Positions 1,332 through 55,895 of a DNA stretch of 64,000 nt are shown piece by piece. The notes beneath the pieces were generated by a model that saw only the letters and a program-made list of their open reading frames with translations, was not told the DNA's origin and searched no databases. A program made the position numbers and the translations under genes. Each line of letters begins with the position of its first letter. Position 1 is the stretch's first letter. The DNA is from a virus (taxonomy: Duplodnaviria; Caudoviricetes). Location of the stretch: positions 64,001-128,000 of the IMG/VR virus record IMGVR_UViG_3300021255_005861, one strand, 5' to 3'.

Positions 1332-1733
1332 ATGAAGATTACCATTCACGAGGCACGCAAGTCGATAGTCACGGAACTCACGTCCGCTATCCAGAAGAAC
1401 AAGCCCAAGGTTCTATTGAGCGACGACGCCGTGGTGTACTTTGATGACTACGACGATATGCTTGACGAGTTTGAAACCGCCTACCAGACATACGTCCACG
1501 TCAGCGGCAACCCGGACGAGGACATCCTGTTCTTGTACGAGCCCGACGAGAATATCGTGGTTATCGGCGACTTCGACGTAGACCACGAGGCTCGCGACCG
1601 CGCCAAGGAACTCATGGAGAAGTTCGTCCGCGGGGAACTGGTCAAGGCCGACAAGCCCCTCGGTGGACTGGATTACGTCGTTATCGAGGACGGCAATACC
1701 TATACTGCCACGGCATTCGTGGAAAGGGAATAG
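1332..1733 (+). CDS. Hypothetical protein with N-terminal tag MKITIHE
   Basis: ATG 1 nt after the previous stop; phage codon bias. Confidence 0.7.
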   Translation: MKITIHEARKSIVTELTSAIQKNKPKVLLSDDAVVYFDDYDDMLDEFETAYQTYVHVSGNPDEDILFLYEPDENIVVIGDFDVDHEARDRAKELMEKFVRGELVKADKPLGGLDYVVIEDGNTYTATAFVERE

Positions 1734-1734
1734 C

Positions 1735-3099
1735 ATGCGTATTACGAACCATAACATTGCCGAGAAGAAGCTCGGCAAGTCGGACATGAAGAAACTCGCA
1801 TCCGCCATCAACCGCGGATACATCTTCGAGGCCCTGGACATCGCCGAGGAAGTCGCCAAGACCAACCTCGATGAGGTCAAGAAGGCCGGGGAAGCCCTGG
1901 ACGAGTGCGAGCAGGCTCTCGCCGCCATTACCCTGTACAAGGGCAAGCTGGACGCCATCGGCGCTACAGCGGTGCGCAAGGCCATCGACTACACCTACAG
2001 CGAGGAAGGCGAGTCCGCCGAAAAGATAATGAAGACCGTCAAGGAGGCGCTCAAGGAACTGTACACGCAGTTCGGCGACCTCGCCAACGCCCGCGAGATG
2101 GTCAGCACGTTCCGCAGCAAGTACGCCTCCAACGGCACGATGTCGCTCAACAACGGCGGCAACGCCGTGGCCGTGACCCGCCAGGAACTGGAGGAGCTCG
2201 GTCTCGACCCGAATGTGTCCGCGTACGACTACATCTCCCGCACCAGCGTATCCGACAAGACCAAGAACGCCAAGCTGGCCGAGGAACTCGCCCCCATCAT
2301 CGAGAACGCCAAGAGCCTGACCACGTCCATCGTGGCGGCGGGCGAGAAGACGATAGCCGTGGAGGAGTTCAACAAGCTGCTCGCCTACCTCGAGGACCTC
2401 AAGAAGCGCTCCGAGGAAACCACGAAGGTTATCGCTACCCGTTTCTTCCAGGCCACACCCGCCGAGATCGACACTATCCCGAAGGAATCCCGTATGCAGG
2501 AGGGTATCCTGGATACGCTCAAGAATATGTTCAAGGGCGTCATGGACGCCGTTACCGAGGGCGTGGGCAAGGTGCTCGACTATTTGTTCGGGATGCAGGA
2601 CGAGGTGGACAACGCCGTGGACGCCTACGACGATCTCATGGCCACGCTCGCTTCCATGGGCTATAAGGTCAAGACTACCCCGCGTGAGAAGCACGAGAGC
2701 GTGTCTAGCCTCGTTGCCAAGATTAGCGAGTCCGTTGGCGTAGCCTGCGACAACCTGGCCAAGGACGCCTCCCTCGACGGCGAGTTCGTGGACGAGATAA
2801 TCTACACGAAGGAAGCCTTCAAGGACATCGCCGACTCCTTGAACAAGGCTACCGAGTCGCTCAAGGCGCTCAAGGGTATCGCCTCCTACCACGTCAACGA
2901 GGGCAACATGGAAATCGTGGGCATCCTCGCCGACGCCATTACCAAGATTGCCGCGGACAACAGCGGAGAGGAAGAGGACGATGGGAGCGAACTCCCGGAC
3001 GAACTCCCGCAAGAGGTTGACCGCACGTACCAGGGTGGAGAGCAGGAAGTGCCCGAAGAGGAAGAGCCCCCCTTCGGCGAGGAACCCGGCGAGTTCTAA
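1735..3099 (+). CDS. Helical, acidic-tailed virion/prohead core-like protein
   Basis: Starts MRITNHNIAE; coiled-coil composition, ES-type linkers, acidic C-terminus. Confidence 0.6.
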   Translation: MRITNHNIAEKKLGKSDMKKLASAINRGYIFEALDIAEEVAKTNLDEVKKAGEALDECEQALAAITLYKGKLDAIGATAVRKAIDYTYSEEGESAEKIMKTVKEALKELYTQFGDLANAREMVSTFRSKYASNGTMSLNNGGNAVAVTRQELEELGLDPNVSAYDYISRTSVSDKTKNAKLAEELAPIIENAKSLTTSIVAAGEKTIAVEEFNKLLAYLEDLKKRSEETTKVIATRFFQATPAEIDTIPKESRMQEGILDTLKNMFKGVMDAVTEGVGKVLDYLFGMQDEVDNAVDAYDDLMATLASMGYKVKTTPREKHESVSSLVAKISESVGVACDNLAKDASLDGEFVDEIIYTKEAFKDIADSLNKATESLKALKGIASYHVNEGNMEIVGILADAITKIAADNSGEEEDDGSELPDELPQEVDRTYQGGEQEVPEEEEPPFGEEPGEF

Positions 3100-3119
3100 A
3101 CGAGCCTAAAACCGAGATA

Positions 3120-3151
3120 GAAGTTCCGCGGAAGTTCCGCGGAACTTTTTT
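3120..3151 (+). terminator. Intrinsic terminator
   Basis: AAGTTCCGCGG..CCGCGGAACTT followed by a T run. Confidence 0.65.
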
Positions 3152-3221
3152 CATTTAGGGGGCTCGGAATCTTTAGTTTTTATGTATATTTAGGGTATAT
3201 TTTTCACGAGGTTAAACCTTT

Positions 3222-4247: not shown

Positions 4248-4251
4248 TCCT

Positions 4252-4776
4252 ATGCTCAAAATCCGAGTTCACGAAAGACTTAACGAGGCATTCAACCCCA
4301 AGACCGTCAAGATTGGCAACCAGGTGTGGATGGCAGAAAATCTCGCCATTGACGATGGTGGCGAGGGTATTAAGGTTCGGAATGGAAATACATATTATGA
4401 TTGGGATGCTGCGATGCGTGTGGCTTCAAACATAAAAGGTTGGCATCTGCCGACATTATCCGAATTTGAAGATTTAGTTGAATTTGTAGGTCCCAAACCC
4501 GCAAATAAATTGAAATCCACAGAGGGATGGGTATTTGAAGAATGGCGGGGTTTAGATACAAAAGGCACTGATGATTTTGGATTTACAGCCCTGCCCGTGG
4601 GGTGTATGGACGTAGCGGGTCTTGGAGGCGTAGGCTACCGCACTCGGTTTTGGAGTTCCTCTTGTAGTGATAAAAAAACCGCCCGAACACTGTCATTATG
4701 GAATGATTTGTCCCGTGTAAATTTCCTACACGATGATAAAGAACTTCTTTTGTCCGTCCGCTTAATCAAGGACTAG
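4252..4776 (+). CDS. FISUMP (Fibrobacter succinogenes major paralogous) domain protein with N-terminal tag
   Basis: TVKIGNQVWMAENL, YYDWDAA, GWHLPT..EF..L, GTDDFGFTALP.G, FWSS, SVRLIKD motifs. Confidence 0.85.
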   Translation: MLKIRVHERLNEAFNPKTVKIGNQVWMAENLAIDDGGEGIKVRNGNTYYDWDAAMRVASNIKGWHLPTLSEFEDLVEFVGPKPANKLKSTEGWVFEEWRGLDTKGTDDFGFTALPVGCMDVAGLGGVGYRTRFWSSSCSDKKTARTLSLWNDLSRVNFLHDDKELLLSVRLIKD

Positions 4777-4780
4777 CCCT

Positions 4781-5481: not shown

Positions 5482-8247
5482 ATGCCTAAGTCCGCATTTC
5501 TACATAAGAAGAGTCTGCTCGACACGTTCAAGGACGACTACAGGGTCACGAACCCGATAAAGGCCGCCCGAGCCGAGCGCACGTGGGACAACCCCATCGT
5601 GCGCCACAAGCGCGAACGCGAGATAAACAAGTGGGCTCACTCCTTCGCGGGCAAGAAGCACTTCAGGAAACTGACGCGGTTCAACGCCACCAGAGAGGCG
5701 AACGAGTCCTGCCGGGTGCTATACCCGCTGGAAGACGTGGTCAAGGTGGTAACGGACGCCCTGCGAACCATACGGACGCGCATATACCAGGTGGACGGGT
5801 ACTACCAGTTCATACAGGACAAGTTACAATACGGCATGGTCGTGGCCAAGGATATCGCCCACAGGGACTTCCCGTACAGGTGGGAGGTGCAGGCCAACCT
5901 GGTCACGCGCTTGAAGAAGGGCAACGAGATAGTAATGGAATACCATCCGGATACCCCGGAACAACTTAGCGAGTACCTTCAGGAAGAAGGTGCTATAGAA
6001 TCCAACGAGGCTAAAATGAAGATCAGCGTACGCGAGAGCAAGAAAAACGAAAAGGACGAACCGACCTACGTATGGTTCGGCCTGGAACATGACGAGGACG
6101 GGGATTATACTGACTCCCTGGCCGTATTCGTGGACGACGTTTCCAACGGCATGGTTACGGTCTATGCCCACATGGGACAGCACTCTTCTGCGAGCCTGGA
6201 CTACGTGGCAGGACTGGAAGCAGACCCGAACCCGAAGGGCGACTTGTACAAGGAACTCATCGGACAGGGCTACGACAACCTCGTGGTTGTTAATACGGAT
6301 GTGGCCGAGGATATGCTCGGCATCCGCATGCACCCGGACGACGATGCCCGCGAACTTGAAGACCCGGAGAAGTACGACAAGTACGAAGCCCGCGAGGTCA
6401 AGACGGCCTGGACGTATCTCGGGGAACTTGAAAAATTGGAAGGTGCTGACTCCCGCAAGGAGGCTACCGGAAAGATGCTGGATGCGCTCGGCTATACGCA
6501 GGGTACTGAAGGTCGCTGGTATGACGATGAAGGCGACGAGGTGAATATCATCGACGTGCTTGACAACACTGAGTGGGACAAGGCCGTGACTATATGCGGC
6601 CCGCTCCAGGAGTCCAAGAACGCCCGCGAGGACTTCTACAAGGGTAAAGACCGCGGGTTTCTCGTGCTCGTGCAGAAATTGATTGCCGACAACTGGTATG
6701 CCGGTGCACGCAAGGAATATCCCGGCCTTACCCTCGACTGCTACGAGATGGACGGTGCCGGCGACGACATGAAGATTTGTTTCGAGGCCTACGGCGAGGA
6801 GATAGACGACCCGATGTCTGAAGGCCTCATGGAGGTAGCGGAGGAGTCCGCAAAGAAGGGATGCGCCGACGCGAACCGCAGTACCTACCCGCGTATCGCG
6901 GACTACGGTCTGGAAGCCAACTTTATCAGTTGGGACGAGCCCAACGTGTTCCGCGACCAGTGGAATTACGTGATAAACTTGAGTTCCAAGCCCAAGGGCA
7001 AGAAGGGCGAGTCCAAGAAACAGGCCAATGAAATGGTTGGTAATAAAAAATGGGTTATCCGCATCAAGCGTCTTGGTAAGAACTATTACGTATGTAGCAG
7101 TTCGTTTAGAGTCAATAAGGCATTCCGTTATCCTTCATTGGGTGGACCATTTGTCTGCTCGGATTGGGATATAACTGAAAGGGATATAGCCAAATACGAC
7201 AATTACAATGACGCAAAGAAAGCGTGGGATAGTATGGCACAGGTTCTACGTGGAGGATTGCCATTCTATAAGGAAGGTGAAGATTACGAGATAGTCCAAG
7301 TAAATTTTTCTATGATGGGCGAGTCCAAGGAACCTGCCGACGAAAAGTTGGGTTATGAAAAAGGACACAAGAACAGCAAGGGCGAGCCTGCCCCGTGGGT
7401 TATCCGTTCCCACGAGGACAACCGCGTACTCGCCTCCTTCGCGAACAAGGACGATGCCTACGCCCACCTCCAGCGCATGAAGCAGTACTCTGAGAGCCGC
7501 TCCGTGGACGACTACGACACCCTGCGTGACGGACTCAAGGAACTCGGCTTCGAACTTGACTCCGATACCCGCAATGGTAAGGTCTACGCCTACCGCTCCC
7601 GCTTCAAGGCTACGAAGGACGGAGTTGTTTACCGGTTCATCATAAACGAGGACGGAGAGGATACCGCTTCCATCGAGGTCTTTGTCGGCGACGACGAGAA
7701 GTCCACAAGATACAAGACCGTGAATGACGTGCTGACAGCATTTAAAGGTACGTCCGAGTCCTTCCACAAGGTCCAGGTCAAGGACACGCTGTTCGACATT
7801 CTCAAGAAGCACGGGGTAAACGACAAGGCCAAGGTGTCCTATGACGGCGACGCCATCGTGTGCGAGTATGACGGCACCACGATCCGTATCGACAACGACC
7901 TCGCCCTGACCGCCAAGATGCAGGACAAGACCATCGACCGCAAGTACGGTACGCTGGCAGACCTCTCCGCAGACCTGGACAAGTATTTTACCAAGTACGT
8001 CAAGGAGTCCCTTGAGAAGAACGGCGTCATCGTCGTTCCCGAATGGTTGTGGATAGCCTACGAGACGGGCGACTCCTCCAACCTCTCCGTCGAGGAGGAG
8101 CAGATACTGGATGGGTTCCGGGCGATGGCCGCGGGCAAGGTGTTTGACGCTGAAGCCGAGCCCTCGTTCAGTGCGTTCAACGACTTCGACGACTACGCCG
8201 GAAACTGCTACGAGGTGCAAGTCTATACAATCAAGGAAGGTGTATAA
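5482..8247 (+). CDS. 921 aa multi-module polyprotein-like protein
   Basis: Unrelated ~60-110 aa modules separated by ESKK/ESKN/ESKE/SES linkers; internal RBS and ATG at 6016 (MKISVRESKK). Confidence 0.75.
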   Translation: MPKSAFLHKKSLLDTFKDDYRVTNPIKAARAERTWDNPIVRHKREREINKWAHSFAGKKHFRKLTRFNATREANESCRVLYPLEDVVKVVTDALRTIRTRIYQVDGYYQFIQDKLQYGMVVAKDIAHRDFPYRWEVQANLVTRLKKGNEIVMEYHPDTPEQLSEYLQEEGAIESNEAKMKISVRESKKNEKDEPTYVWFGLEHDEDGDYTDSLAVFVDDVSNGMVTVYAHMGQHSSASLDYVAGLEADPNPKGDLYKELIGQGYDNLVVVNTDVAEDMLGIRMHPDDDARELEDPEKYDKYEAREVKTAWTYLGELEKLEGADSRKEATGKMLDALGYTQGTEGRWYDDEGDEVNIIDVLDNTEWDKAVTICGPLQESKNAREDFYKGKDRGFLVLVQKLIADNWYAGARKEYPGLTLDCYEMDGAGDDMKICFEAYGEEIDDPMSEGLMEVAEESAKKGCADANRSTYPRIADYGLEANFISWDEPNVFRDQWNYVINLSSKPKGKKGESKKQANEMVGNKKWVIRIKRLGKNYYVCSSSFRVNKAFRYPSLGGPFVCSDWDITERDIAKYDNYNDAKKAWDSMAQVLRGGLPFYKEGEDYEIVQVNFSMMGESKEPADEKLGYEKGHKNSKGEPAPWVIRSHEDNRVLASFANKDDAYAHLQRMKQYSESRSVDDYDTLRDGLKELGFELDSDTRNGKVYAYRSRFKATKDGVVYRFIINEDGEDTASIEVFVGDDEKSTRYKTVNDVLTAFKGTSESFHKVQVKDTLFDILKKHGVNDKAKVSYDGDAIVCEYDGTTIRIDNDLALTAKMQDKTIDRKYGTLADLSADLDKYFTKYVKESLEKNGVIVVPEWLWIAYETGDSSNLSVEEEQILDGFRAMAAGKVFDAEAEPSFSAFNDFDDYAGNCYEVQVYTIKEGV

Positions 8248-8740: not shown

Positions 8741-10036
8741 ATGAAAACGGTTAAATTGCAAATATCTAATATACCTGATATACAAGATGACTTACGTACG
8801 TTTAGTAGTATGGTACGTATTGCATTTAATCGTTTTTATGAGGGGCATACCGAAAAACAAATTACTGAATATTTAAAGATACGATTTGTTACTAATAGCT
8901 GGGTCATTCGTTCGGCGATACAATCTGCCCATAATTTATATGTTGCACAAATTCCAAAAAATTCTATTTTTGGAGGAAAGACTAATCTTGTTCGTTATTT
9001 AAAAGGTTTAATTACAAAAGAACAATTTAGACGTAATCGGCAGTTTCCGTTTAGTAGTACTGGTGAAACACATTATAGAGGTAACAGACTATTTGATTTT
9101 GATTTTGATAATAATCAAGTAATATATAAGTTACATAAGGGATCATGTAAAGTTATTCAATTCCGTCCAGTAAAGAAGAAACTAGCCAACGAGTTAGCCA
9201 AGGTTCAAGAGCTGGCAGACCAGAAGAAGATGTCTGTAACCGTCAAGTTCACGGACAAATACCTCTATCTTACCTATGATGAGTCCTTGATTTACAATGA
9301 TGCCTATAAAGGTTTAAAGGCTAATAGAGTTCTAGGTATAGATATGAACCCCAACTACATAGGGGTGTCTGTTATTGAGTTCAACAAGAACGATGAATTT
9401 AGGGTCTTGCATAAGGAAGTGTATGATCTGACAATGCTTACGAAGCCTAGTGGTAAGTCTAGTAGTGATGCTAAATCAAAGTATCTTACAAATAAGTTGA
9501 AGCACGAGACCATCGCTATTGCACATAAGATAAATAAGTTAGTGGATTATTGGAAGTGCAGTAAACTTGCTATTGAAGATCTGTCTATTAAGTCCTCGGA
9601 TAAAGGTAAGGGCAAGGTTTTTAACCGCCTATGCAACAACAAGTGGGAACGCCAACTCTTTGTGAACAAACTCAAAATGTTGGCTAATATCCACCGCTAT
9701 GAGTTGGTTGAGGTTAATCCGGCCTATTCTTCAATAGTTGGCAATTTCGCATATGGGAGTCCGAATACTCCCGATATGATAGCCGCGTCTATTGAGATCG
9801 CCCGTAGAGCATACAAGAAGTTTGAAAAGGGATGGTTCTATCCCAGGTTTAACGTTGAAACCCAAGACGAGCGATGGAAGCAAACGCTTGGTGGAGTGGA
9901 AACCTGGAAGGGCTTATTCCAAAAAATAAAAAAAGCGAAACTCAAATATCGTTTTCTGCTATCCGACTATGTTGGAAATGCAGTTTTTAGTAATTCCTAT
10001 AAAAATCATAAATGGAAATTTCTATCATTTAATTAA
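8741..10036 (+). CDS. tnpB: TnpB-related RuvC nuclease lacking the C-terminal zinc finger
   Basis: VLGIDMN (RuvC-I), AIEDL (II), VNPAYSS..PDMIAAS (III); AT-rich relative to flanks; element ends not resolved. Confidence 0.8.
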   Translation: MKTVKLQISNIPDIQDDLRTFSSMVRIAFNRFYEGHTEKQITEYLKIRFVTNSWVIRSAIQSAHNLYVAQIPKNSIFGGKTNLVRYLKGLITKEQFRRNRQFPFSSTGETHYRGNRLFDFDFDNNQVIYKLHKGSCKVIQFRPVKKKLANELAKVQELADQKKMSVTVKFTDKYLYLTYDESLIYNDAYKGLKANRVLGIDMNPNYIGVSVIEFNKNDEFRVLHKEVYDLTMLTKPSGKSSSDAKSKYLTNKLKHETIAIAHKINKLVDYWKCSKLAIEDLSIKSSDKGKGKVFNRLCNNKWERQLFVNKLKMLANIHRYELVEVNPAYSSIVGNFAYGSPNTPDMIAASIEIARRAYKKFEKGWFYPRFNVETQDERWKQTLGGVETWKGLFQKIKKAKLKYRFLLSDYVGNAVFSNSYKNHKWKFLSFN

Positions 10037-10048: not shown

Positions 10049-10645
10049 TTGCAGACCCTCTATGTACCGAAATACAACCTGCACTACCGAGTGAACCCGA
10101 GGAACCCCCGCGAGCTCCAGTGGTCGCGCAAGCCGTTCGGTCCGGCCACCCAGTGGCAGCACGCGATGTCCTTCAAGAACCCCATCCGAGCCCTCGACCT
10201 CGACGACGAGACGAAGCAGGGTGTAGTTGTACTTAACGACAGCACCACGTACGTAGGGTCCGGCGTCCGTACGTGGGGGCGCAAGTTCTACCCCGCGGGA
10301 ACACGTATCTATAGCCTCTACGCTATCGGAGAATCAACGGAGAAAAAACCTATGTCCAAACTCAAGATTAAAGTACGCGAAGCATTCGGCGGTCCCTGCA
10401 CCCCGAAGGAACTCAAGAACGAGATGGCCAAAGTAATCTCGGACTTCCACAAATACATCGGCGAGCACAAGGGCAACGACCGCTATACCGGCACCGTCGC
10501 CTTCTACATCGACGACCTGGGCTACGGCAGCACCGAGGACGACAAGAAGGTGGTGCTGGACGTCATCGAGCTCCTCCGCAACGAACTCCTTCAGCTCAAG
10601 TCCATGATAGAGGACTCGCCCGTACCGGAGAATGACAATGCTTAA
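10049..10645 (+). CDS. Hypothetical protein, apparently two fused units
   Basis: RBS GGAG with TTG start; internal GGAG and ATG at 10352 (MSKLKIKVREA). Confidence 0.6.
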   Translation: MQTLYVPKYNLHYRVNPRNPRELQWSRKPFGPATQWQHAMSFKNPIRALDLDDETKQGVVVLNDSTTYVGSGVRTWGRKFYPAGTRIYSLYAIGESTEKKPMSKLKIKVREAFGGPCTPKELKNEMAKVISDFHKYIGEHKGNDRYTGTVAFYIDDLGYGSTEDDKKVVLDVIELLRNELLQLKSMIEDSPVPENDNA

Positions 10646-11005: not shown

Positions 11006-11842
11006 ATGACTAAGTTCATTCGCCCCGACCACGAGTACACAAAGCAGAAACCCGGCTACCCCAAGCCCTTCGATCCCGCATACCACGACGACATCACGCG
11101 CCAGGTGTGGCAATATATCAAGGACCACAAGGAACTAGGCCTGGACAGCGGGTGGAAGGGACACACCTTCGTAGTCCTGGACGGGAAAAATGAACTCGCC
11201 CGCATCGACTACGACCGCGACACCGACAGCATCAAGGTGGACGTGAAGGGCATCACGAAGTCCTTCCCGTTCGACGGCGCCACCATCGAGGACGTGCTCC
11301 TCCCGGTCATCGACAATGCCAAGGACGAGGCCGCCAAGACCATCTGGGCGGTCAAGTTCGACACGCCCGAAATCGCCCTTGACGAGGAATACTACTTCCG
11401 CGACGCCTGGGGACACGTGGTCAACACCGCCGTAGTGGGAGACACTGTGTACCTCGAGCCTGATGGAGACAAGGGCGAGAAGGCCATCAAGGAATGGTAC
11501 GGGGACAAGGTGTCCCGTGTGCAGATGACCGACGAGGTATATGCGATTCTCCACCCGTCCGAGTCCAAGAAGTGCGAGCGCCTCTCCGACTACGGCTACG
11601 ATGACATCGTGAAGGAGATCGCGGGCGAAGTAGAGCATACCTTCGCCGACGAGGAAATCTATGACAAGACGGACAAGTACGACGTGAAAGTAGCACTGGC
11701 GAAGGCGCTCCGTACGTGGGCCCCGGACCTGCTCCTGAACATCGCCGAGGACGCCATGGAGAAACTCGGGTACTTCGCCAAGGACTACGACGCCTTTATG
11801 TCCGTGGTGAATGATGCAGTAGGCGATGCACTGAACGACTAG
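11006..11842 (+). CDS. Multi-module hypothetical protein
   Basis: RBS GGAGG; PSESKKCE linker before an acidic C-terminal module. Confidence 0.7.
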   Translation: MTKFIRPDHEYTKQKPGYPKPFDPAYHDDITRQVWQYIKDHKELGLDSGWKGHTFVVLDGKNELARIDYDRDTDSIKVDVKGITKSFPFDGATIEDVLLPVIDNAKDEAAKTIWAVKFDTPEIALDEEYYFRDAWGHVVNTAVVGDTVYLEPDGDKGEKAIKEWYGDKVSRVQMTDEVYAILHPSESKKCERLSDYGYDDIVKEIAGEVEHTFADEEIYDKTDKYDVKVALAKALRTWAPDLLLNIAEDAMEKLGYFAKDYDAFMSVVNDAVGDALND

Positions 11843-21310: not shown

Positions 21311-22192
21311 ATGTCCTGGAAGGTGGCATATAAGAACCTGTATGGCGAACTGGAGAGCGAGGTGTTCGACACCCGTGACCAGGCCGACGCACGCTATGAC
21401 GAGCTGTCCCGCAGGTGTGACCTCTACTGGTCCACGCTGCGCGGTGGCGAGGACATACCCGATACCTGCGACATCGACTGGGTGGACGAGCCCGAGGAGG
21501 TGGACGAGGACGGGTCGTCCGCGTGTGCGCTGGGGGCTGTACCCACCGGGATGATAATTCCGAAGAGGAAGACTATGAAAATGAAGGAAAACGAGGAATT
21601 CTGGATTGACGTGGCGGCGCCCGAGTATAGGGGTGCGCCCGCTCCCAAATTCAACCCGAAGGCCATCAACGAGCCCCGCATCCCGGACGGAATGCGATAT
21701 AAGGAATACACGTGGTCCGAGGACGAGTTCACCGATGGTGATGTTATCTTGGACTGGGTGACACAGGAGACCTACACGCCGGAAGACCGCGAGGCCTTCA
21801 AGTCCGAGGTGAAGCGTGCACTCAAGGCGAACGGGTTCAAGGGCAAGGTTCAAGTCAATTTGAACGTCCGCGGCGAGGACGACATCGAGACGTTCTTCAT
21901 CGACATGGGCAAGAACGAGGCGTTCAACGCCAACCGCAAGGACTGGGCTAACGCCGCCAGTTATGACAGGTTCGCCCGTGGCGCCAGCGCGATGTACACG
22001 ATACTCGCCTTCGACCGCCGTATCGACGATGTGCTCGCGGACTACAACGACGCCTTGAAGTACATCCCGCACGGGGTCAACGGCGCGGTAGTGCCGTTTT
22101 TGAGCAAGTACGAGGCCGAGGACCTCTCCGAGGAACTAGCCTCCAAGGGCATCGAGCACTGCGTGTTCAAGCAGACACTGGAGATCGCGTAA
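21311..22192 (+). CDS. Multi-module hypothetical protein
   Basis: Clean ORF; possible internal start MKMKENEE. Confidence 0.6.
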   Translation: MSWKVAYKNLYGELESEVFDTRDQADARYDELSRRCDLYWSTLRGGEDIPDTCDIDWVDEPEEVDEDGSSACALGAVPTGMIIPKRKTMKMKENEEFWIDVAAPEYRGAPAPKFNPKAINEPRIPDGMRYKEYTWSEDEFTDGDVILDWVTQETYTPEDREAFKSEVKRALKANGFKGKVQVNLNVRGEDDIETFFIDMGKNEAFNANRKDWANAASYDRFARGASAMYTILAFDRRIDDVLADYNDALKYIPHGVNGAVVPFLSKYEAEDLSEELASKGIEHCVFKQTLEIA

Positions 22193-23036: not shown

Positions 23037-23041
23037 AGAAA

Positions 23042-24064
23042 ATGGTTATCGCTGAAGACTACATCCCGTTCGACGGGTTCGAGTTCATAGACGACATCTC
23101 GAAGGTGAGCGAGTCCGCCCAGTCCGAGGTGGCGAACTCCAAGGGCACGATACTTGCCATCGTCAAGGGCAAGCACTTCTGCCCCGGCGGCGTGTCCCGC
23201 AACCACCGCCTCTACACCGAGGAATTGTGGAAGTCCGTCGGCGAGAACGACGAACTGAAGCACCGCATGGACGACAACCAGATGCTCGGTCGCATCGGCC
23301 ACGAGGCCGAGATGACCGACGAGGACATCGCCGACGGCAAGTTCTCCCACTACACGAGGAACATCAACTGGGAAACCGGCGAGGCCGAGGACGTCATCCT
23401 CAACACCCCGATGGGCAACACGCTCTACACGCTCCTCCGCTCGGGCGTCAAGCTCTATGTGAGCAGCCGTGCGGACGGCGACTACAACGGCAAGGACGAG
23501 GACGGCAACGACATCCTCGACCCCGAAACGTACAAGCTGGAACGCTTCGACTTCGTGCAGGATCCGGGCTTCCTCGAGGCCAAGCCCAAGATGATAACCG
23601 AGTCCGTCAAGAAGACCGAGGCGGCGCACGAGAAGCAGGCCGAGGCACTCTTGGACGTTGCCCGCAGGCTCGGCGCCCCCGTGGAACTCGACGACAGCGA
23701 GTACATCGTGGAGAGCATGGGTGCTGGCAAGGTGTCGCTCGGGGGCATGTCCGGCACGGAGGACTGCTCGCTCAACGACTTTACCGAGGTCACGGCTGAC
23801 ATCGCCGAGTCCATCGTCAAGTACGTGGACGGCCTGCGTAGGGAACTGGACGAGAGCAAGGACACGATAAAGATGCTCCGCTTCGCCAACAGCAACGGCC
23901 TGGACGAGGACTACGTGGAACGCAAGATAGGCGAAGGGGCCACCTACGAGAGCCTCGCCCACGAGAAGCCCAAGCCGAGGCAGTTCAAGATGGTCGAGGC
24001 CAAGATGGACGAACCCGCGGACAGCGGCGACGACGTGTCCTTTCTCAATACCATATTCGGATAG
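23042..24064 (+). CDS. Prohead core protein protease (T4 gp21-like)
   Basis: SRNHRLY, LGRIGH, LNTPMG, VSSRADG, FDFVQDPGF. Confidence 0.85.
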   Translation: MVIAEDYIPFDGFEFIDDISKVSESAQSEVANSKGTILAIVKGKHFCPGGVSRNHRLYTEELWKSVGENDELKHRMDDNQMLGRIGHEAEMTDEDIADGKFSHYTRNINWETGEAEDVILNTPMGNTLYTLLRSGVKLYVSSRADGDYNGKDEDGNDILDPETYKLERFDFVQDPGFLEAKPKMITESVKKTEAAHEKQAEALLDVARRLGAPVELDDSEYIVESMGAGKVSLGGMSGTEDCSLNDFTEVTADIAESIVKYVDGLRRELDESKDTIKMLRFANSNGLDEDYVERKIGEGATYESLAHEKPKPRQFKMVEAKMDEPADSGDDVSFLNTIFG

Positions 24065-36938: not shown

Positions 36939-37517
36939 ATGAAGCAAGAGTTAAAAATAAGTGAATACGCTAAAAAGGTACGATGCTGTACCCGCACAGT
37001 ATGGAATAAGATATATGCCCATACGATAGATGCCCGTAAGACCGAAAACGGGTGGCGTATTTTTGTTGACGATGGTATCGCAGAGCCTAAATATGCCGTA
37101 TATGCTAGGGTTTCTTCCGCAGAGAACAAGGACAACCTGGAACGGCAGAAACAGCGTTTATTGGACTTTTGCGCAGCTAAGGGATGGCCCGTAGAGAAAT
37201 CCGTCGAAGAGGTTGGATCGGGCTTGAATGACGAACGAAAGAAACTTGCCAAGCTGCTTGCTGACGAGACAATAACGCATATTGTTGTCGAGCACAAGGA
37301 TAGGTTCTCCCGTTTCGGGTTTCGTTATGTAGAACAGCTCCTAAAACAACAAGGCCGCTGTATCGTGGTAATTAACGAGCAGGACAATGAACGGGATGAC
37401 TTGATGGAAGATTTTGTATCTATTATTACGTCGTTTACGGCACGTCTCTATGGCAGGAGACGCTCCCGTAGAAGGACTGAAAAACTTATAGAGGAACTGA
37501 AGAAGGATGATGCCTAG
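36939..37517 (+). CDS. tnpA: IS607 serine recombinase TnpA
   Basis: N-terminal HTH, YARVSS, EVGSGLN, EHKDR..RFG, LYGRR. Confidence 0.93.
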   Translation: MKQELKISEYAKKVRCCTRTVWNKIYAHTIDARKTENGWRIFVDDGIAEPKYAVYARVSSAENKDNLERQKQRLLDFCAAKGWPVEKSVEEVGSGLNDERKKLAKLLADETITHIVVEHKDRFSRFGFRYVEQLLKQQGRCIVVINEQDNERDDLMEDFVSIITSFTARLYGRRRSRRRTEKLIEELKKDDA

Positions 37518-47220: not shown

Positions 47221-48848
47221 ATAGCAACTAATAATCGTATTTTACCAACAATTAGGGGTTTAGGCATTTTCTACATAAAATTTTCTTGAAAATTCCCTTG
47301 ATTTCCAATGAAAATAAATGTAGATTGTTATAAACTTTAAGTGTATGCAAGTTCGTGGTGGTTCTTGTATATAGGAATGGACTTTGAATGCCCGTTGGAT
47401 GCTAACCACCACTTTAAGCGTCTAACGGGCATTTGCTATTGTATGGAACAGCAGTGCGGACGGAAAATATGCTTGAAACCGAGCAAGGCACAGGTACGGA
47501 CGATGTACCGTATGTGTGCCGTCTCCCGCCGTGCCTACAACTGGAAACTGGCCGAGCAGAACAAGGCTTACGAGGAAGCCAAGGCCAACACGCCGGAAGG
47601 CGAGAAGGTCAAATGCACCCTCGGAACGCCGAGGGACTGGCACAAGGAATGGTGCATCTACAAGAAGCTCCCTGATAACAAGTGGATGACGGAAGTTTCC
47701 AAGTTCTGTGGCCAGGAAGCACTAATCGACCTCGGTTCCGCATGGAAGCGTTTCTTCAAAGGATTAGCCAAGCATCCACGCTTCCACCGCTATAACCAGG
47801 ACAACTCGTTCCGCTGCTCAGGTGGTGTATTCATCGGTCATGATTTCGTCCAGCTCCCTACCCTCGGCAGAATCAAGCTCCGCGAGAAGGACTACATCAA
47901 GATACCGAAGGATGCCGAGAAGATACCGCTTGCCATGGCGACCGTATCGGTGGATGCCGCTGGTAAATGGTATGTCTCCTTTGCCTATGTAGCCGACATC
48001 GTTCCAGTCCACGAATCCATATCTTCGTTCGATGAGCAGGACATCGTAGGCGTCGATTTCGGTGTGAAGGACCTCGCAATCACGAGCGACGGCATCGTGT
48101 ATGCCAACCCGAAAGCCTATCGCCATGCAAAGGCTAGGCTCCGTCGTGCTCAACGGGCACTCTCCCGCAAGAAGAAACACTCCAAGAATAGGGAACGGTG
48201 CAAGAAACTACTTGGTAGAATCCACCGCAGAATAACCAACATCCGTGTCAATGCGGCTCATCAGTTTACCGCTGACATTACAAAACACACGAAGCCGAAG
48301 GCTATAGTCATCGAGGACTTGAAGCCAAAGAACATGTCCAAGAACCATAAATTGGCTTCGGCTATCCTCGATGCCAACTTTGGTAGGATGAGGCAGTTCC
48401 TTGAATACAAGTGTGCATGGTTAGGCATACTGCTGTTCTTCGCTCCGCAGTTCTATGCTTCGTCAAGATATTGCTCCCACTGCGGGCAATACTACAACAA
48501 GGATTTGACCCTGGACGACAGGGAGTGGGTATGCCCGGTATGCGGACATAAACACGACAGAGATTACAATGCAGCCAGGAACTTGCAGTTCTATGGCCTG
48601 TGGCTACTAAATCTAGTAGTCCCAACTAATGACAATGCGGTGAGATACACCGTAAGCGACAATTCCGTTGCGAATGCTTGCCCCCACGGCAACGCCCAGT
48701 GCGTTACCTATCGGGAAGGTATGGTTTACACCAGCCCCAGAGACATGAGGTTGCAGTTCTTTGAAACACAGGAACAGTGCATGGCGATGAAGCAAGAAAT
48801 CACCAATACATATTTAATTGGTAGAAATGTGTAGAAATGATTTATCGG
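47221..48848 (+). mobile_element. Non-autonomous IS607-like tnpB-only element, copy A
   Basis: Ends shared with the 53681 copy (ATGGG|A..GCAACT left; GTAGAAATGTGTAGAAATGATTTATCGG right); no tnpA. Confidence 0.8.
47443..48834 (+). CDS. tnpB: TnpB nuclease
   Basis: VGVDFG, VIEDL, CSHC..CPVC, DRDYNAA. Confidence 0.92.
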   Translation: MEQQCGRKICLKPSKAQVRTMYRMCAVSRRAYNWKLAEQNKAYEEAKANTPEGEKVKCTLGTPRDWHKEWCIYKKLPDNKWMTEVSKFCGQEALIDLGSAWKRFFKGLAKHPRFHRYNQDNSFRCSGGVFIGHDFVQLPTLGRIKLREKDYIKIPKDAEKIPLAMATVSVDAAGKWYVSFAYVADIVPVHESISSFDEQDIVGVDFGVKDLAITSDGIVYANPKAYRHAKARLRRAQRALSRKKKHSKNRERCKKLLGRIHRRITNIRVNAAHQFTADITKHTKPKAIVIEDLKPKNMSKNHKLASAILDANFGRMRQFLEYKCAWLGILLFFAPQFYASSRYCSHCGQYYNKDLTLDDREWVCPVCGHKHDRDYNAARNLQFYGLWLLNLVVPTNDNAVRYTVSDNSVANACPHGNAQCVTYREGMVYTSPRDMRLQFFETQEQCMAMKQEITNTYLIGRNV

Positions 48849-50244: not shown

Positions 50245-51625
50245 GTCAACTACTCACCGCCTAAAGGCGGTGAGCTTGTAATGCCCCAGATGTTTCCATA
50301 GGGGACTTACAGTACGATCGGGTGGTTGACTCACACCCTGCCCTCCAGGTTTGCAATGCTCCATCAAGGGGCATCTTGAACGAGAAGGGATGTTTGCTCT
50401 TCCGAGCGATGTTGATTGCCGCATTCCAATCCGAATCAAGGATGGTACCGTTCTTGCAATAGAACCTTCGGTTCTTGCGAGTACCTTCCTTTTTGCCAGT
50501 GGTGCAGTCAATCTGGCTTGTCATGAATGGGGAAACTGTTTCTACCCGCTTGCCCGCGAGTAGTGCCTTGTATGACAGGATTTGTTTTAACTTATAGAAC
50601 GGCACCTGGGAAATCCTACGGTTGTGGCCCTTCCTCTTCTTGCCGTCCTTGGTCTTTGAAGTTTTCTGCTTTATTTTTGACAGGTCTTCGAGCACGATGA
50701 TGCTTGCGTCGGTACTGTGTATGATGGCGTTCGCTACTCGGCAGCACATGTCATCGGACTGCCGTTGCTCCTTCTTGCATAGCTTGTGCCTATGCCTGTG
50801 TGCACTCTTCGTGCCCTTCTTCTGTAGACTACTCTTCAAGTAACGAATCTTTCTGCGTCTAGCGTTATATTCCTTGTCGTTGAGCATCAACCCGTCAGAA
50901 GTTATCACAAAACGGCGCTCGCCCAGGTCAACGCCTATGCAAGTTTCGTCCTTCAAAGGTACTTCCGGAACCTCAAACGACAGTGCGAGGAAGAACCTAT
51001 CATCATGCTTAAATATCAGCGGATCATGCACGGGATACTTTCCGAACATCTCTTCCAGCTTCGGGTACTTGACTATATCGGCATCTACCCGCTTTCCTGG
51101 ATTGGCCGAGCATAATGAAATCGAAGATAAACTTAACCTGGAATACAGACGCTTGTCAAGACGCATCGAAAGGTTCTTCTTCGTAGGCACCTTGTGCTCG
51201 ACATGACCGTTGCTGTTGATTGAACGGAACGCCGATATGCAATCCTTGTATATCTTGATTATTCCCTGCGACGGTATCGTCGGAAACTTCTTGCGTAATT
51301 CGTAGTACACTGCGTTGTGTACAGACTGCAAGTCCAGGTGTACCTTACGGGTGGTTATGATGTTAGCACATTCGTTGTACGCAAGTCGAGATACTTCAAG
51401 AAGACTCGTCCAGTATTCCTGGCCGGCAATATCCTTGAATTTTAGCTCGGCATTGTATGTTATTGTACTCATCTATACTTCACCCGTGTTCACCTATAAG
51501 TTTAGATAATTTCAGTTACAAAAACAAGCAATTTCCGCATTATAACAAAATAAAGCGTTCCCAAAATGTTCTCGCAAGCATTCCTATGCCGCCCTAAAGG
51601 GACGGCATCTTCCTGCCAACTTTTT
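50245..51625 (-). mobile_element. IS200/IS605-family (IS1341-type) tnpB-only element
   Basis: Subterminal hairpins with TTTA loops at both ends; right end ...GTAGTTGAC; TTCAC immediately 5' of the left end. Confidence 0.85.
50261..51472 (-). CDS. tnpB: TnpB nuclease
   Basis: IGVDLG, VLEDL, SP..TSQ, DSDWNAA. Confidence 0.92.
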   Translation of the reverse strand: MSTITYNAELKFKDIAGQEYWTSLLEVSRLAYNECANIITTRKVHLDLQSVHNAVYYELRKKFPTIPSQGIIKIYKDCISAFRSINSNGHVEHKVPTKKNLSMRLDKRLYSRLSLSSISLCSANPGKRVDADIVKYPKLEEMFGKYPVHDPLIFKHDDRFFLALSFEVPEVPLKDETCIGVDLGERRFVITSDGLMLNDKEYNARRRKIRYLKSSLQKKGTKSAHRHRHKLCKKEQRQSDDMCCRVANAIIHSTDASIIVLEDLSKIKQKTSKTKDGKKRKGHNRRISQVPFYKLKQILSYKALLAGKRVETVSPFMTSQIDCTTGKKEGTRKNRRFYCKNGTILDSDWNAAINIARKSKHPFSFKMPLDGALQTWRAGCESTTRSYCKSPMETSGALQAHRL

Positions 51626-52299: not shown

Positions 52300-53502
52300 A
52301 TGATTGAAATTCAAGGAAAATACAATACCGCCAAGGTATATACCGACAATATCGAGGAGGCAGCCTATAAGCAAATCCTCAACTTGATGAACCAGAAGTT
52401 CGCCGAGGGTTCACATTTCGCCATTATGCCCGACTGCCATGCCGGGGTCGGCTGCGTCATCGGGCTTACCATGAAAATCGTAGACCGTGTCGTACCGAAC
52501 CTGGTCGGTGTGGATATCGGGTGTTCTATGCTCGTGCTCAAGGTAGACAAGTCCTTCCACTTCGACCTTCCGAAAGTGGACAAGGTGTGGCACCAGTGCA
52601 TCCCGTCGGGAATGAACCATAATGTAAAGAAGCACCGGTTTGCCGACCGCGTAAACCTCGAGGACATGATAGCCCCGGTGAACGTGGACAAGCTGAAATT
52701 GTCCATTGGGACTCTCGGTGGGGGTAACCACTTCGGCGAAATCAACGAGGACGACGAGGGCAACCACTATATCGTAATCCACTCCGGGTCGCGCCACCTC
52801 GGTATCGAGGTGTGCCGGTACTACCAGGACTTGGCAATCAAGTACCACCGCAATGACCGCACGGCAATGCAGGATGCCATCAAGCGCCTGAAGCAGGCTG
52901 GTCGCGAGTATGAGATCGAGGACACCCTGCAACGTATGAGCGCGGAGCGTACACCTGTACCGAACGAACTCGCTTACCTGGAAGGTGCACTTATGCAGGA
53001 CTACCTTCACGACATGCGGATAGCGCAGGATTTTGCTATGTGGAACCGCGAGGCGATGATGGACGTCCTTGTGTCCGAACTGGGAATCAAGAAGCGTCAT
53101 ATCCAGGACAAGTTCTGTACGATGCACAACTACATAGATTTGGATAACATGGTTCTCCGCAAGGGCGCCATATCCCTGCAAAAGGACGAGGTCGCCCTAA
53201 TCCCTATGAATATGCGGGACGGCTCTCTAATCGTCAAGGGAAAGGGTAACCCGGAGTGGAACTGCTCGGGTCCGCACGGGGCTGGGCGACTCATGTCCCG
53301 CTCGAAGGCGAAGGAATCGTTGAAAATGGAGGACTTCAAGGCTGCCATGTCCGGCATCTACACTACTTGCGTGAGCTCCTCCACTATAGACGAGTCCCCG
53401 ATGGCCTACAAGCCGATGGACGAGATAGTGGCGAACATCCAGGACACCGCCGAGGTTATCAAGGTCATCAAGCCTATCTACAACTTCAAGGCCTCCGAAT
53501 GA
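52300..53502 (+). CDS. rtcB: RNA-splicing/repair ligase RtcB
   Basis: MPDCHAG, VGVDIGC, GTLGGGNHF, IHSGSR, HNY, RKGA, HGAGR, DESP.AYK. Confidence 0.96.
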   Translation: MIEIQGKYNTAKVYTDNIEEAAYKQILNLMNQKFAEGSHFAIMPDCHAGVGCVIGLTMKIVDRVVPNLVGVDIGCSMLVLKVDKSFHFDLPKVDKVWHQCIPSGMNHNVKKHRFADRVNLEDMIAPVNVDKLKLSIGTLGGGNHFGEINEDDEGNHYIVIHSGSRHLGIEVCRYYQDLAIKYHRNDRTAMQDAIKRLKQAGREYEIEDTLQRMSAERTPVPNELAYLEGALMQDYLHDMRIAQDFAMWNREAMMDVLVSELGIKKRHIQDKFCTMHNYIDLDNMVLRKGAISLQKDEVALIPMNMRDGSLIVKGKGNPEWNCSGPHGAGRLMSRSKAKESLKMEDFKAAMSGIYTTCVSSSTIDESPMAYKPMDEIVANIQDTAEVIKVIKPIYNFKASE

Positions 53503-53680
53503 GATACGCACAACAGTACAGGTTCAAGGACTGGACGAACGAGCAGGTACAGCTCGTGCTCCAGGACAAGATACCGGAAGGAAAGACATACAACCAGTGC
53601 TACTACTTCAGCAACCGCTACCTGCATCGCCCGTTCACGCCCGCCCGCAAGAAGCAGCACGCACGTATAATCGAGATGGG

Positions 53681-55298
53681 ACGGCAACTGATAACCGTAT
53701 TTCTACCAACAATTACCATTTTTAGGCATTTTCTATATAAAATTTTCTTCAAAAATTTCTTGTTTTTGTATAAAAATAAATGTAGATTATTATAAACTTG
53801 ATAATGTATGCGAGTATGTGAGAGTCCCCGCATAACACTAGAACGGACTTTTGAATGCCCGATGGATGCCGACTCTCACAATAGGTGATCATCGGGCATT
53901 TGCTATATGGACTATGGAACAGCACTGCGGAAGGAAGATATGCTTGAAGCCGAGCAAGGCACAAATACCGATTCTATATCGGATGTGTGCCGTTTCCCGT
54001 CGTGCTTATAATTGGAAACTCGCAGAACAGAACAAGGTTTACGAGTTGGCTAAAGCCAATACGCCCGAAGGCGAGAAGGTTAAGTGCAAGTTCGGTTCTC
54101 CTATTGATTGGCACAGGGAATGGTGCATACACAAGAAACTCCCCGAAAACAAGTGGATGACCGAAGTCTCCAAGTTCTGCGGTCAGGAAGCCTTGATAGA
54201 CTTGGGTGCTGCGTGGAAGCGGTTCTTCAAGGGTCAAGCCAAGCATCCACGTTTCCACAAGTATAACCGGGATAACTCGTTTAGGTGCAGCGGTGGCGTG
54301 TTCATCGGTCGTGATTTCGTGCAACTTCCGACACTTGGAAAAGTTCGCCTGCAAGAGAAGGATTACATCAAGATACCGAAGGACAGCGAGAAGATACCGC
54401 TTGCGATGGCTACCGTATCGGTGGACGCAAGCGGGAAGTGGTTCGTGTCGTTCGCCTACGTGACGGATATTATACCTATACACGAAGTAGTGTCTAGCAT
54501 AGCCACTGACGATATTGTAGGCATAGACTTCGGTATTAAAGACTTGGCTATCACTAGCGAGGGTATCGTGTATGCGAATCCCAAGGGATATGCCCGTGCA
54601 AAGGCTAGACTTCGGAGATACCAAAGGGCTTTGAGTAGGAAGAAGAAATGCTCAAAGAACAAGAACAAGTGCCGTAAGCGTATAGCCCGTCTGTATAGGC
54701 GTATAACTAACGTCCGCATAGATACGGCACATCAGTTTACTAGCGATGTCGTTTACAAGTCCAAACCGAAAATGGTAGTCATTGAGGACTTGAAGCCACA
54801 GAATATGGCGAAGAACCACAAGTTAGCATCTGCCATCCTGGATGCCAATTTCGGGCGTATGCGGACATACCTTGAATACAAGTGCAGATGGAATAACATA
54901 AACTTGGCTGTTGCACCGAGATTTTACGCTAGTAGTCAGTATTGCTCGCACTGCGGACAATACAAGAACGAAGATTTGAAACTGAATGACAGAGAGTGGG
55001 TATGCCCCGTATGCGGGCATAAACACGACCGAGATTACAATGCAGCCAGGAACTTGCAGTTCTATGGCTTGTGGCTCACTGGACTCGTGAGAACACAAAA
55101 TAGTTGCGGTGAGAACACCGTCAAAGCCTGCCCCCACGGAAACACAGGATGTGTTTCTTATCGGGAAGGTATGACCTATGTCAGCCCTAGAGATATGAGG
55201 TTGCAGTTCTTGGAATCCCAAGAGCAGTGCATATCGCTGAAGCAGGAAATCACTAATACATATTTAATTGGTAGAAATGTGTAGAAATGATTTATCGG
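53681..55298 (+). mobile_element. Non-autonomous IS607-like tnpB-only element, copy B
   Basis: Ends and protein homologous to copy A. Confidence 0.8.
53914..55284 (+). CDS. tnpB: TnpB nuclease
   Basis: VGIDFG, VIEDL, zinc finger, DRDYNAA. Confidence 0.92.
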   Translation: MEQHCGRKICLKPSKAQIPILYRMCAVSRRAYNWKLAEQNKVYELAKANTPEGEKVKCKFGSPIDWHREWCIHKKLPENKWMTEVSKFCGQEALIDLGAAWKRFFKGQAKHPRFHKYNRDNSFRCSGGVFIGRDFVQLPTLGKVRLQEKDYIKIPKDSEKIPLAMATVSVDASGKWFVSFAYVTDIIPIHEVVSSIATDDIVGIDFGIKDLAITSEGIVYANPKGYARAKARLRRYQRALSRKKKCSKNKNKCRKRIARLYRRITNVRIDTAHQFTSDVVYKSKPKMVVIEDLKPQNMAKNHKLASAILDANFGRMRTYLEYKCRWNNINLAVAPRFYASSQYCSHCGQYKNEDLKLNDREWVCPVCGHKHDRDYNAARNLQFYGLWLTGLVRTQNSCGENTVKACPHGNTGCVSYREGMTYVSPRDMRLQFLESQEQCISLKQEITNTYLIGRNV

Positions 55299-55415
55299 GG
55301 AACAGATAGAGGATATGCTCAACCAGCTCCTCTCCTACGCGGAGATAGCCGAGCGGTTCAACCTATCCAAGCAGAGAATCTATAGCATTATGCAACGATA
55401 CAAGGAATTAAAGAG

Positions 55416-55895
55416 ATGATAAAAATCAAGGTACACGAGAAGCACATTACCCTGGAGGACGTGGACGATGCGTTCAAGTCCCAGGCGTACAACCTCATGG
55501 AGAACTGGTGCCTCGTACGGGTATCCGAGCTGGACGATGCCTTCTCCTACGAGCACAACCACTGGATCGACGAACTCTATGCTGCCCTGTTTAACTGCTT
55601 GAAGGTAATATTGAACATACCTCACTCCCAGAGGGCCTTGCTCAAGCGGATAGACAAGGGGCTGAATCTGCCCATCATCACCGACCCGGACAAGTCACGG
55701 AACCTTATTGAGACCAAGTTCCTCGTGAAGGAGCATATTCCCGAGGACGTGTTCAACCAGGTGCTCGCGGAGTGGTACACGGACGGCAAGGCCGAGCTCC
55801 GCAAGGTGCTGACCTCCGAGCAGAGCCTCGTGTCCTACATCCGGGCCAAGCAGGCTACGGCGCCCGCAAAGAAAACAAGAAAGAGACGCAAGTGA
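55416..55895 (+). CDS. DUF29-like helical protein with tag MIKIKVHE
   Basis: LMENWCL..NHWIDEL pattern. Confidence 0.55.
   Translation: MIKIKVHEKHITLEDVDDAFKSQAYNLMENWCLVRVSELDDAFSYEHNHWIDELYAALFNCLKVILNIPHSQRALLKRIDKGLNLPIITDPDKSRNLIETKFLVKEHIPEDVFNQVLAEWYTDGKAELRKVLTSEQSLVSYIRAKQATAPAKKTRKRRK

Follow-up and report, generated by a model that had tools for sequence, protein, structure and literature searches.

Why should a set of otherwise unrelated phage proteins begin with the same few residues? This question is raised by a 64,000-nt stretch of the caudoviricete record IMGVR_UViG_3300021255_005861 (hereafter the window), which covers bases 64001-128000 of a 185,666-bp genome of 55% G+C. A preliminary description of the window had listed 16 proteins that share a short N-terminal tag of the kind MKIKVHE, and had proposed that the tag targets injected cargo to the capsid. 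All 16 N-termini read as claimed. From our analyses, the tag is real, selected at the protein level, modular, and carried by unrelated proteins; together with a related joint inside large proteins, it probably acts as a clip-off propeptide of the T4 type, marking proteins for the inside of the prohead and supplying cleavable linkers in polyproteins.

We performed our own gene calling over the whole genome (261 genes, 54,869 residues), in which about 25 genes, approximately 9%, bear the leader when looser cases are included (the genes at window positions 4252 and 35958, and degenerate tags that are backed by orthologues); about 14 firm cases fall in the window. The consensus of the tag is M-x(0-3)-[KR/I]-I-[KR]-V-[HKR]-E, with S-K-K-N-E after it in many cases. 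Searched for within the first residues, the strict pattern [KRIT]-I-[KRHT]-[IV]-[KRHSNT]-[ED] was matched at 17 of the 261 called gene starts as against 2 internal positions in all the residues, while a six-frame scan gave 27 matches among 16,670 ATG/GTG/TTG codons, of which about 22 correspond to genuine gene starts and three to spurious short frames. Aligned on the Glu, 55 tags read M/L at P7, K at P6, I at P5, K/R at P4, V at P3, H at P2, and E at P1, followed by S at P1' and then K-K-x-E; P1 is Glu in 52 tags and Glu or Asp in all, and the ending [IV]-x-E is found in 52. The alternating hydrophobic and basic residues suggest the character of a beta-strand. Nine genes with this leader (type 1, as a second type is described below) lie outside the window, at genome positions 1, 32302, 52891, 53821, 59265, 59762, 63294, 134201, and 184678, the last two on the minus strand.

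In a megablast search, the head region of the phage had no match among cultured phages. The protease and the major capsid protein (MCP) have only distant relatives, of 31-43% identity, among large myoviruses, including Rhizobium phages of the Kleczkowskaviridae, Ralstonia phage RP13, and Thermus phage phiLo. Nearer relatives were gathered through the protease, namely G005 (215,686 bp) and G006 (213,231 bp), both 97-99% complete as estimated by CheckV, and G001, a fragment of 80.6 kb, which share about 62% identity with this phage in the protease and about 72% in the capsid protein. G005 and G006 have about 12-17 genes each with type-1 tags, in spellings such as MSKMKIKVHES, MSNNLKIKVHES, and MGRMTIKVHETKQNE, and the G001 fragment has seven. 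No shared N-terminal tag was found in the 14 genes checked around the protease gene of a cultured relative, Rhizobium phage RHph_Y65, whose MCP is about 34% identical and whose protease catalytic domain about 43% identical to those of this phage.

It is highly improbable that the tag reflects chance, a recombination cassette at the DNA level, or an effect on translation initiation or messenger RNA. Codons rich in A (AAG, AAA, ATT) follow the ATG and can favor initiation, and tags do sit at recombination junctions; however, the synonymous sites of the tag vary freely (Ile ATT/ATC/ATA, Val GTA/GTT/GTC/GTG, Lys AAG/AAA, Glu GAA/GAG) with no conserved nucleotide motif, which is indicative of selection on the peptide as opposed to RNA or DNA. 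Initiation bias, which the preliminary description had itself raised, is thus contradicted by the codons, and chance is ruled out by the excess of the strict pattern at gene starts. The conserved Glu, with Ser and Lys after it, and the retention of the tag at an internal position in three genomes and in fused genes also argue against such explanations. Using degenerate DNA patterns for MKIKVHE[ST] and MxIKVxE[ST]KK over IMG/VR (2.9 million contigs), we found matches only in this clade, so the tag is not a general N-terminal bias of phage genes. One further match, on contig 3300020048_000068, was rejected as a chance hit in a phage of 27% GC that has no homologue of the protease.

The proteins behind the tags are as unrelated as had been claimed: after the first 16 residues were removed from 26 tagged proteins, only two paralogue pairs were left (the two FISUMP proteins at 4252 and 22569, and the proteins at 35958 and 36404). 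Wherever a family profile exists, the leader lies outside it. Position 1 of the Pfam profile Fib_succ_major corresponds to residue 19 of the 4252 protein, which is indicative that its leader is an add-on, and the FISUMP homologues of the relatives are in some cases tagged and in others untagged; likewise, in the protein at genome 63294, position 8 of phrog_5162, a family of unknown function, falls on residue 26. The Pfam families recognized on tagged proteins are FISUMP, twice, and one phosphoribosyltransferase domain. The FISUMP assignment of the preliminary description was therefore upheld, while its DUF4160-like and DUF29-like assignments found no Pfam match at E-values up to 5. PHROGs gave no function for any tagged protein, the ESM Atlas gave unnamed viral clusters only, and a search of a large protein database with the 36404 protein returned a single near-identical match. 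The genes of the tail sheath, baseplate region, UvsX, SSB, and primase are untagged, in line with the earlier statement that replication and tail genes lack the tag.

The tag is not strictly N-terminal, as it also stands at internal junctions; the copy at 10352 is internal in all three genomes compared. As read from the alignments, the tag is composed of two elements, a putatively strand-like N-terminal piece and a joint that also serves internally. The joint, E-S-[KR]-[KRN]-x-E, was observed 7 times in this genome as against 0.45 expected from shuffling, and 14 times as against 0.15 in G001 (an enrichment of 15- to 90-fold), and its sites fall at module boundaries that are gene boundaries in relatives. 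The internal copies (47 in four genomes) read E-S-K-K-[SN]-E-[AS] with an almost unconserved N-terminal side; a 1030-aa protein of G001 and a 1265-aa protein of G005 carry six copies each. On at least eight occasions, an N-tagged protein of one genome reappears as an internal module in another, with an ESKKxE-type site exactly ahead of the module. For example (slashes mark the junctions), MSKMKIRVHES/SGSAGAKFYDSF stands against ...APNESKKSE/SAAGRSFYDEF, and MNIKVHESKKNE/RLSD, in the free-standing tagged gene at 1463 of G001, matches ...HPSESKKCE/RLSD at the last module of the 11006 protein. The N-terminal part encoded by the first gene of the window matches, together with its leader, a 489-aa G005 protein at internal residue 120, where that protein reads KSESKKNE; this gene also has an internal SESKKPE site at about 299-316. 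In the opposite direction, residues 1-99 of the long open reading frame (ORF) at 5482 are separate genes in G005 and G006, and its remainder matches the tagged genes at 107324 of G005 (MPFTIKVHES) and at 4931 of contig L060 (MSKMKISVHEHKKQE).

Exchange at the joint was also seen between close relatives. On contigs L055 and L056, whose protease is 92% identical, one 330-aa ORF unites the genes at 21311 and 22192 through ...SKNESKMVIKVREGRMKE..., and contig G003, with an identical protease protein and about 96-97% DNA identity around its gene, lacks exactly one tagged gene, that of the FISUMP-like protein at 22569 (window 22568-23024). The family of the 10049 protein in G005 and G006 has an N-terminal domain of 62-69% identity and a retained tag, followed by unrelated C-terminal parts. 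A second leader, M-K-x-F-x-C-S-M-x-K-K-x-E-S-L-A-K-N, was found on two genes of this genome and five of G005 and G006; the protein at genome 63294 has the type-1 leader and its 67%-identical orthologue in G005 (160528) has type 2, the switch falling exactly at the junction. A large protein at genome 60309-63281 is a mosaic, and its last 80 residues follow L-E-S-K-K-S-E. Different large proteins of G001, G005, and G006 end in this C-terminal module with 82-94% conservation, and it could be an anchor that draws untagged polyproteins into the head. Together, the tags and joints would seem to mark the boundaries of mature proteins. That the tag is half of a larger system, with ESKKxE linkers, polyproteins, and a second leader, strengthens its interpretation as a protease substrate.

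As for the enzyme, the gp21-like protease that had been placed at 23042 is borne out. Its family, PHROG 207, is that of head maturation proteases, and tblastn with it returned phage proteins annotated as prohead core scaffolding and protease. A profile of six members of the clade aligned to T4 gp21 (145 columns; hhalign E 1.8e-4, probability 48.6%), and the catalytic motifs RNxRLY, GxxxH, and VSSR were in register. No Pfam match and no match to sequences in the PDB were found for the protease (phmmer and the six-sequence profile), nor was there a PDB match for the capsid protein by phmmer. Directly after the catalytic domain, the protease reads M-I-T-E-S-V-K-K-T-E (its Glu187-Glu193 part at 23600-23620), where all relatives have [MV]-I-S-E-S-K-K-x-E and RHph_Y65 has V-L-V-E/S; in the hhalign alignment this boundary lies opposite ...P-K-E-I-T-E/S-Q-T-A-E-A of T4 gp21. 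T4 gp21 is reported to be processed at its C-terminal end (PMC9026906), and the protease of SPN3US cleaves off a C-terminal propeptide of its own (PMC9026906; PMC7411985). The capsid protein (genome 57258-58898, phrog_138) has [YF]-V-x-E at residue 65, kept in four genomes. By residue count, this corresponds to L-T-E at residue 65 of T4 gp23, just before AEIGGD, the cut site reported for T4. The [IV]-x-E that ends the tag recurs at this capsid position and at the domain boundary of the protease. K-[IL]-R-E is kept in a small, coiled-coil, scaffold-like protein (genome 56782-57240), whose gene immediately precedes that of the capsid protein. These motifs in the protease, capsid, and scaffold-like proteins would fit a Glu-specific enzyme of the T4 kind.

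A quite different reading is that the tag is a handle for other machinery, such as a modifying enzyme of the radical-SAM type, a chaperone, or a host protease like Prp. Shared leaders on non-homologous phage proteins that are cut by a host enzyme are documented (PMC5744158), and a radical-SAM-like gene starts at the end of the window; nevertheless, we consider this reading improbable. Prp cuts between F and A, whereas the Glu at P1 of 52 of the 55 tags recalls the Glu that likewise ends the head-protein cut sites of T4, phiKZ, and SPN3US, and the protease of the phage itself bears the motif at its domain boundary. A Prp/L27-type leader was rejected, as every tag has Glu or Asp in the P1 position and the junction shows no F-A pair. 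The radical-SAM-like gene (genome 127996-128643, window 63996 onward) encodes 215 aa with a CxxxCxxC motif and a Pfam E-value of 1.9e-6, just under the cutoff, and has no homologue in the tag-bearing genomes G005 and G006 or in the G001 fragment; it was rejected as a partner of the tag.

The tagged genes are concentrated in the head module, where 17 of the 25 fall within a 34-kb span that opens just ahead of the capsid gene and closes with the protease gene (binomial p 8e-8). Tagged genes are retained on both sides of the protease in the relatives. The distance between the capsid and protease genes is about 28 kb here versus 3 kb in G001, and much of the extra DNA is made up of tagged genes. 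This placement also bears on the main rival, namely that the tags and linkers are cleavage sites only, the N-terminal strand being merely an extended recognition site of the protease, and that the proteins are core or scaffold parts which are fragmented and expelled like gp22, gp67, and gp68 of T4 and are not cargo. We regard degradation of such core proteins as unlikely on balance, with a larger share of probability than the other rivals. Genes 67 and 68 of T4 take the place beside its protease gene that tagged genes occupy here, and the T4 core proteins likewise have [LI]-x-E within their first 6-10 residues. The tagged proteins are very acidic, as is the long Asp/Glu tail of T4 gp67, and for some of them this acidity favors the core explanation. 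Several redundant cut sites are also found in the propeptides of phiKZ (PMC9026906). Against this, some tagged proteins have folded enzyme-like or binding domains (the FISUMP and phosphoribosyltransferase domains), and the tagged set differs among close relatives, a fast turnover that is unusual for assembly scaffolds. Moreover, the internal sites lack the I-K-V-H strand, so the strand is not required for a site, which points to a second function.

We thus favor the clip-off propeptide, for which the following course of events may be proposed. The N-terminal M/L-K-I-K-V-H would most likely dock the protein on the prohead core or scaffold during assembly, and the Glu that ends the tag, together with the frequent E-S-K-K-x-E, would most likely be cut by the gp21-type prohead protease of the phage. 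In the large proteins of the head module, E-S-K-K-x-E would join modules into polyproteins that are cut up in the head. The mature proteins would then stay in the head or leave it as peptides, and the retained ones would pass into the host along with the DNA. We infer the cut, docking, packaging, injection, and anti-defense roles by analogy with characterized phages. Several observations speak against this explanation. The link between the protease and T4 gp21 is moderate, given the alignment probability and the missing Pfam and PDB sequence matches, and both AlphaFold2 models are of low confidence: the mean predicted local distance difference test (pLDDT) score was 56.5 for the protease and 52.2 for the FISUMP protein, too poor for fold searches, and below 50 in the boundary region of the protease and in tag residues 1-9. 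The internal sites lack the hydrophobic P3 that is typical of T4 gp21, with K at P3 in 14 of 47. A number of tagged genes are located well away from the head module, including two minus-strand genes in a neighborhood of small early-type genes. The tagged proteins are strongly acidic (median isoelectric point 4.67 versus 5.80, p 3e-4), an odd fit beside packed DNA; as the internal proteins of T4 are basic, according to a T4 review, some of the mostly acidic tagged proteins may be prohead-core proteins and not injected effectors.

The nearest known system is the capsid-targeting sequence (CTS) of T4, leaders of 10-19 residues that bind the core and are removed by gp21; its targeting and processing residues are separable, as Asp at position 10, the last residue, stops cutting and not targeting (PMC9026906, PMC7411985, PMC3012670, PMC12373910). 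The T4 internal proteins have nothing in common but the leader and inhibit host restriction enzymes (PMC9026906, PMC7411985, PMC3012670, PMC12373910), and the Ip genes of T-even phages, of which there are at least 10 different ones, were found through the shared signal sequence (PMC12373910, PMC9026906, PMC7411985). Like the leaders described here, those of T4 IPI, IPII, IPIII, and Alt are short, N-terminal, and carried by unrelated, fast-evolving proteins; they end in hydrophobic-x-Glu, a gp21-family protease is encoded, and small tagged genes adjoin its gene. The spelling is, however, unrelated, as IPII and IPIII start with MKTYQEFIAE/A (read from NC_000866) and the leader here is M-x-I-K-V-H-E/S-K-K-N-E. 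Beyond the final hydrophobic-x-Glu the two are unlike, which is indicative of an analogue of the T4 CTS and not of a member by descent. T4 has four tagged genes as against about 25 in this genome, and here, unlike in T4, there are two interchangeable types of leader and the same element serves as a polyprotein linker. The cargo is mostly acidic here and basic in T4, and the T4 system is known from experiments, the present one from sequence.

Other systems share some of these traits. In phiKZ, 201phi2-1, and SPN3US (gp175 / gp245), many head-internal proteins are cut after Glu at S/A-x-E or A-x-E, the propeptides have been proposed as targeting signals, and the protease sheds its C-terminal propeptide by self-cleavage (PMC7411985, PMC9026906). 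Several redundant Glu-ending sites in head proteins are known there, and several putative sites of this kind stand at module boundaries here. In place of a short common tag, however, those phages have propeptides of 111-130 residues; neither a shared N-terminal leader nor an E-S-K-K-x-E linker is described from them, and they are not close to this clade. Prp removes one leader of 13-14 residues from L27, from the capsid and scaffold proteins of phage 80alpha, and (in phi13) from tail proteins (PMC5744158). As here, one N-terminal leader stands on non-homologous phage proteins, removed there by one protease; but Prp is a host enzyme with an F/A cut that acts on few proteins, and its leader serves assembly, whereas here P1 is Glu and the head protease is encoded by the phage. 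In phage P1, the N-terminal 30 residues of DarB suffice for a foreign protein to be taken into the capsid and delivered with the DNA (PMC9024508), although this signal belongs to a single protein and a stepwise Dar assembly, with neither sharing among many proteins nor a motif for a Glu-specific protease.

The tagged and related genes of the window are collected in Table 1, in which a gene is called solid when it has an ATG or GTG start, a Shine-Dalgarno sequence 5-10 nt upstream, and an ORF of at least 76 aa.

Table 1. Head protease, tagged genes, and related genes of the window, numbered from its first base (a slash marks the junction behind a leader).
Feature	Position	Strand	Remarks
Prohead protease, T4 gp21 family, with C-terminal domain	23042..24064	+	phrog_207, E 6.7e-22
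Gene with type-2 leader MKQFKCSMSKKNE	1..820	+	Genome 63975-64820; starts 25 nt before the window
Tagged protein MKITIHE, 133 aa	1332..1733	+	Solid; no Pfam family
454-aa protein with degenerate tag MRITNHNIAE	1735..3099	+	Orthologues tagged
Tagged FISUMP protein, MLKIRVHERLNE then domain	4252..4776	+	Solid; Pfam Fib_succ_major, E 2.6e-17
921-aa ORF, untagged gene fused with tagged gene	5482..8247	+	Internal tag MKISVRESKKNE at 6016-6051
Tagged protein MIIKVKESKKYD, 76 aa	8247..8477	+	Solid
Doubtful tag-like ORF MPVKISVKR, 46 aa	8541..8681	+	Low coding score; motif without Glu
198-aa protein with internal tag MSKLKIKVRE at 10352-10381	10049..10645	+	Conserved N-terminal domain, variable C-terminal part
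Tagged protein MLKIKVSE, 118 aa	10638..10994	+	Solid
Untagged 278-aa protein with internal SESKKCE (11561-11578) before last module	11006..11842	+	
Tagged protein (GTG)RIKVSDRQRNE/MSR, 145 aa	15924..16361	+	Solid
Weak tag candidate MNIRVRNALSALNE, 176 aa	16365..16895	+	No Glu in register
Untagged 293-aa gene	21311..22192	+	Fused in frame to tagged 22192 gene in close relative
Tagged protein MIIKVHEHKVKE, 125 aa	22192..22569	+	Solid; position just upstream of protease kept
Tagged FISUMP-like protein MIIRVHE, 155 aa	22569..23036	+	Solid; Pfam 32.9 bits versus cutoff 33.9; paralogue of 4252
Tagged protein MPLKIKVHRTNEDFVCE/MAN, 149 aa	35958..36407	+	Solid; paralogue of 36404
Tagged protein MTIKIRVNERISEDALME/MAT, 150 aa	36404..36856	+	Solid; paralogue of 35958
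Protein with type-2 leader MKKFECSMAKKLESLAKNE, 141 aa	42646..43071	+	
Orphan tag ORF MLKIHVNE..., 33 aa	52166..52267	+	Ends 33 nt before rtcB, in another frame
Tagged protein MIKIKVHE, 159 aa	55416..55895	+	Solid; AbiJ_NTD4 hint, E 0.021, not significant

From the 16 members listed earlier, ten are solid and the one at 1735 is backed by its orthologues (MSKMTIKNH in G005, MSLKIKTH in G006, MNIKVKE in G001), while those at 6016 and 10352 lie inside longer ORFs, those at 8541 and 16365 are weak, and the one at 52166 is an orphan. The junctions between Glu and Met, as if a whole gene had been appended to the tag, are present as had been described, and the homologue of the 15924 protein on a nearly identical contig reads MALKIKVSERQLNE/MAR. 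The orthologue of the 22192 protein in G001, MQITVKEHKVRE, keeps the same position just upstream of the protease. The orphan at 52166, which starts with a perfect tag, may be a tagged gene in decay, a leader peptide, or a tag that is fused to RtcB by way of a frameshift. RtcB, encoded at 52300-53502 (Pfam E 3.3e-60), has no tag in G001; a promoter-like site, TTGACT-N17-TATATT, lies ahead of the orphan, which overlaps out of frame with the open stretch running into rtcB. Another orphan frame, with the tag MKITVHD..., was noticed at genome 14746-14823; it stops after 25 aa, about 45 nt ahead of a gene for 54 aa.

Some further features of the region were recorded. The gap of the FISUMP cassette (window 22530-23065 versus L001:9950-10030) is flanked by a direct repeat, AAAGGAAGGCT, which spans the last codons (K-E-G) and the stop region both of the preceding gene and of the cassette. 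A terminase-like gene with a weak PHROG match (12131-14380) lies between the capsid and protease genes. A promoter-like motif, TATATTTA, has 25 copies genome-wide (e.g., window 15901, 35925, 5470, and 3185), nearly all in intergenic DNA at 4-160 nt ahead of a gene; several lie a mere 4-7 nt from the ATG, which suggests leaderless transcripts. As a marker of a "late" class it was rejected, since it is present before tagged and untagged genes alike. Four TnpB-type genes with OrfB_IS605 and/or Cas12f1-like TNB domains are present at window 36939-38814, 47503-48834, 50261-51472 (minus strand), and 53944-55284, one of them paired with a serine resolvase as in IS607, and a 431-aa frame without a Pfam match at 8741-10036 is probably a fifth; four or five such genes are many for one phage window.

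More tentatively, and with less confidence than in the propeptide itself, we suggest that the clade may run a plug-and-play head-cargo system on about one-tenth of its genes, in which the products of any captured gene, be it for FISUMP, a phosphoribosyltransferase, or one of dozens of unknowns, would be loaded singly or as polyproteins, released, and injected, by means of two interchangeable N-terminal address peptides and one universal E-S-K-K-x-E joint. The principle is already published for T4, and here it would be larger and differently spelled. If these readings are right, the genome of an uncultured phage would suffice to name the proteins inside its head, which may also be the injected ones, as about 25 genes plus the modules of its polyproteins; as almost all of these proteins belong to no known family, they would be focused candidates for early host takeover or counter-defense. 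The capsid-targeting principle of the T-even phages would then hold for a group of distant large myoviruses as well, where it would rely on another peptide, serve far more genes, and be combined with polyprotein processing, and the tag and joint would offer a testable handle for protein packaging. The fission and fusion of genes exactly at the joints, even at 92% identity of the protease, would be a clear example of how a cargo set evolves.

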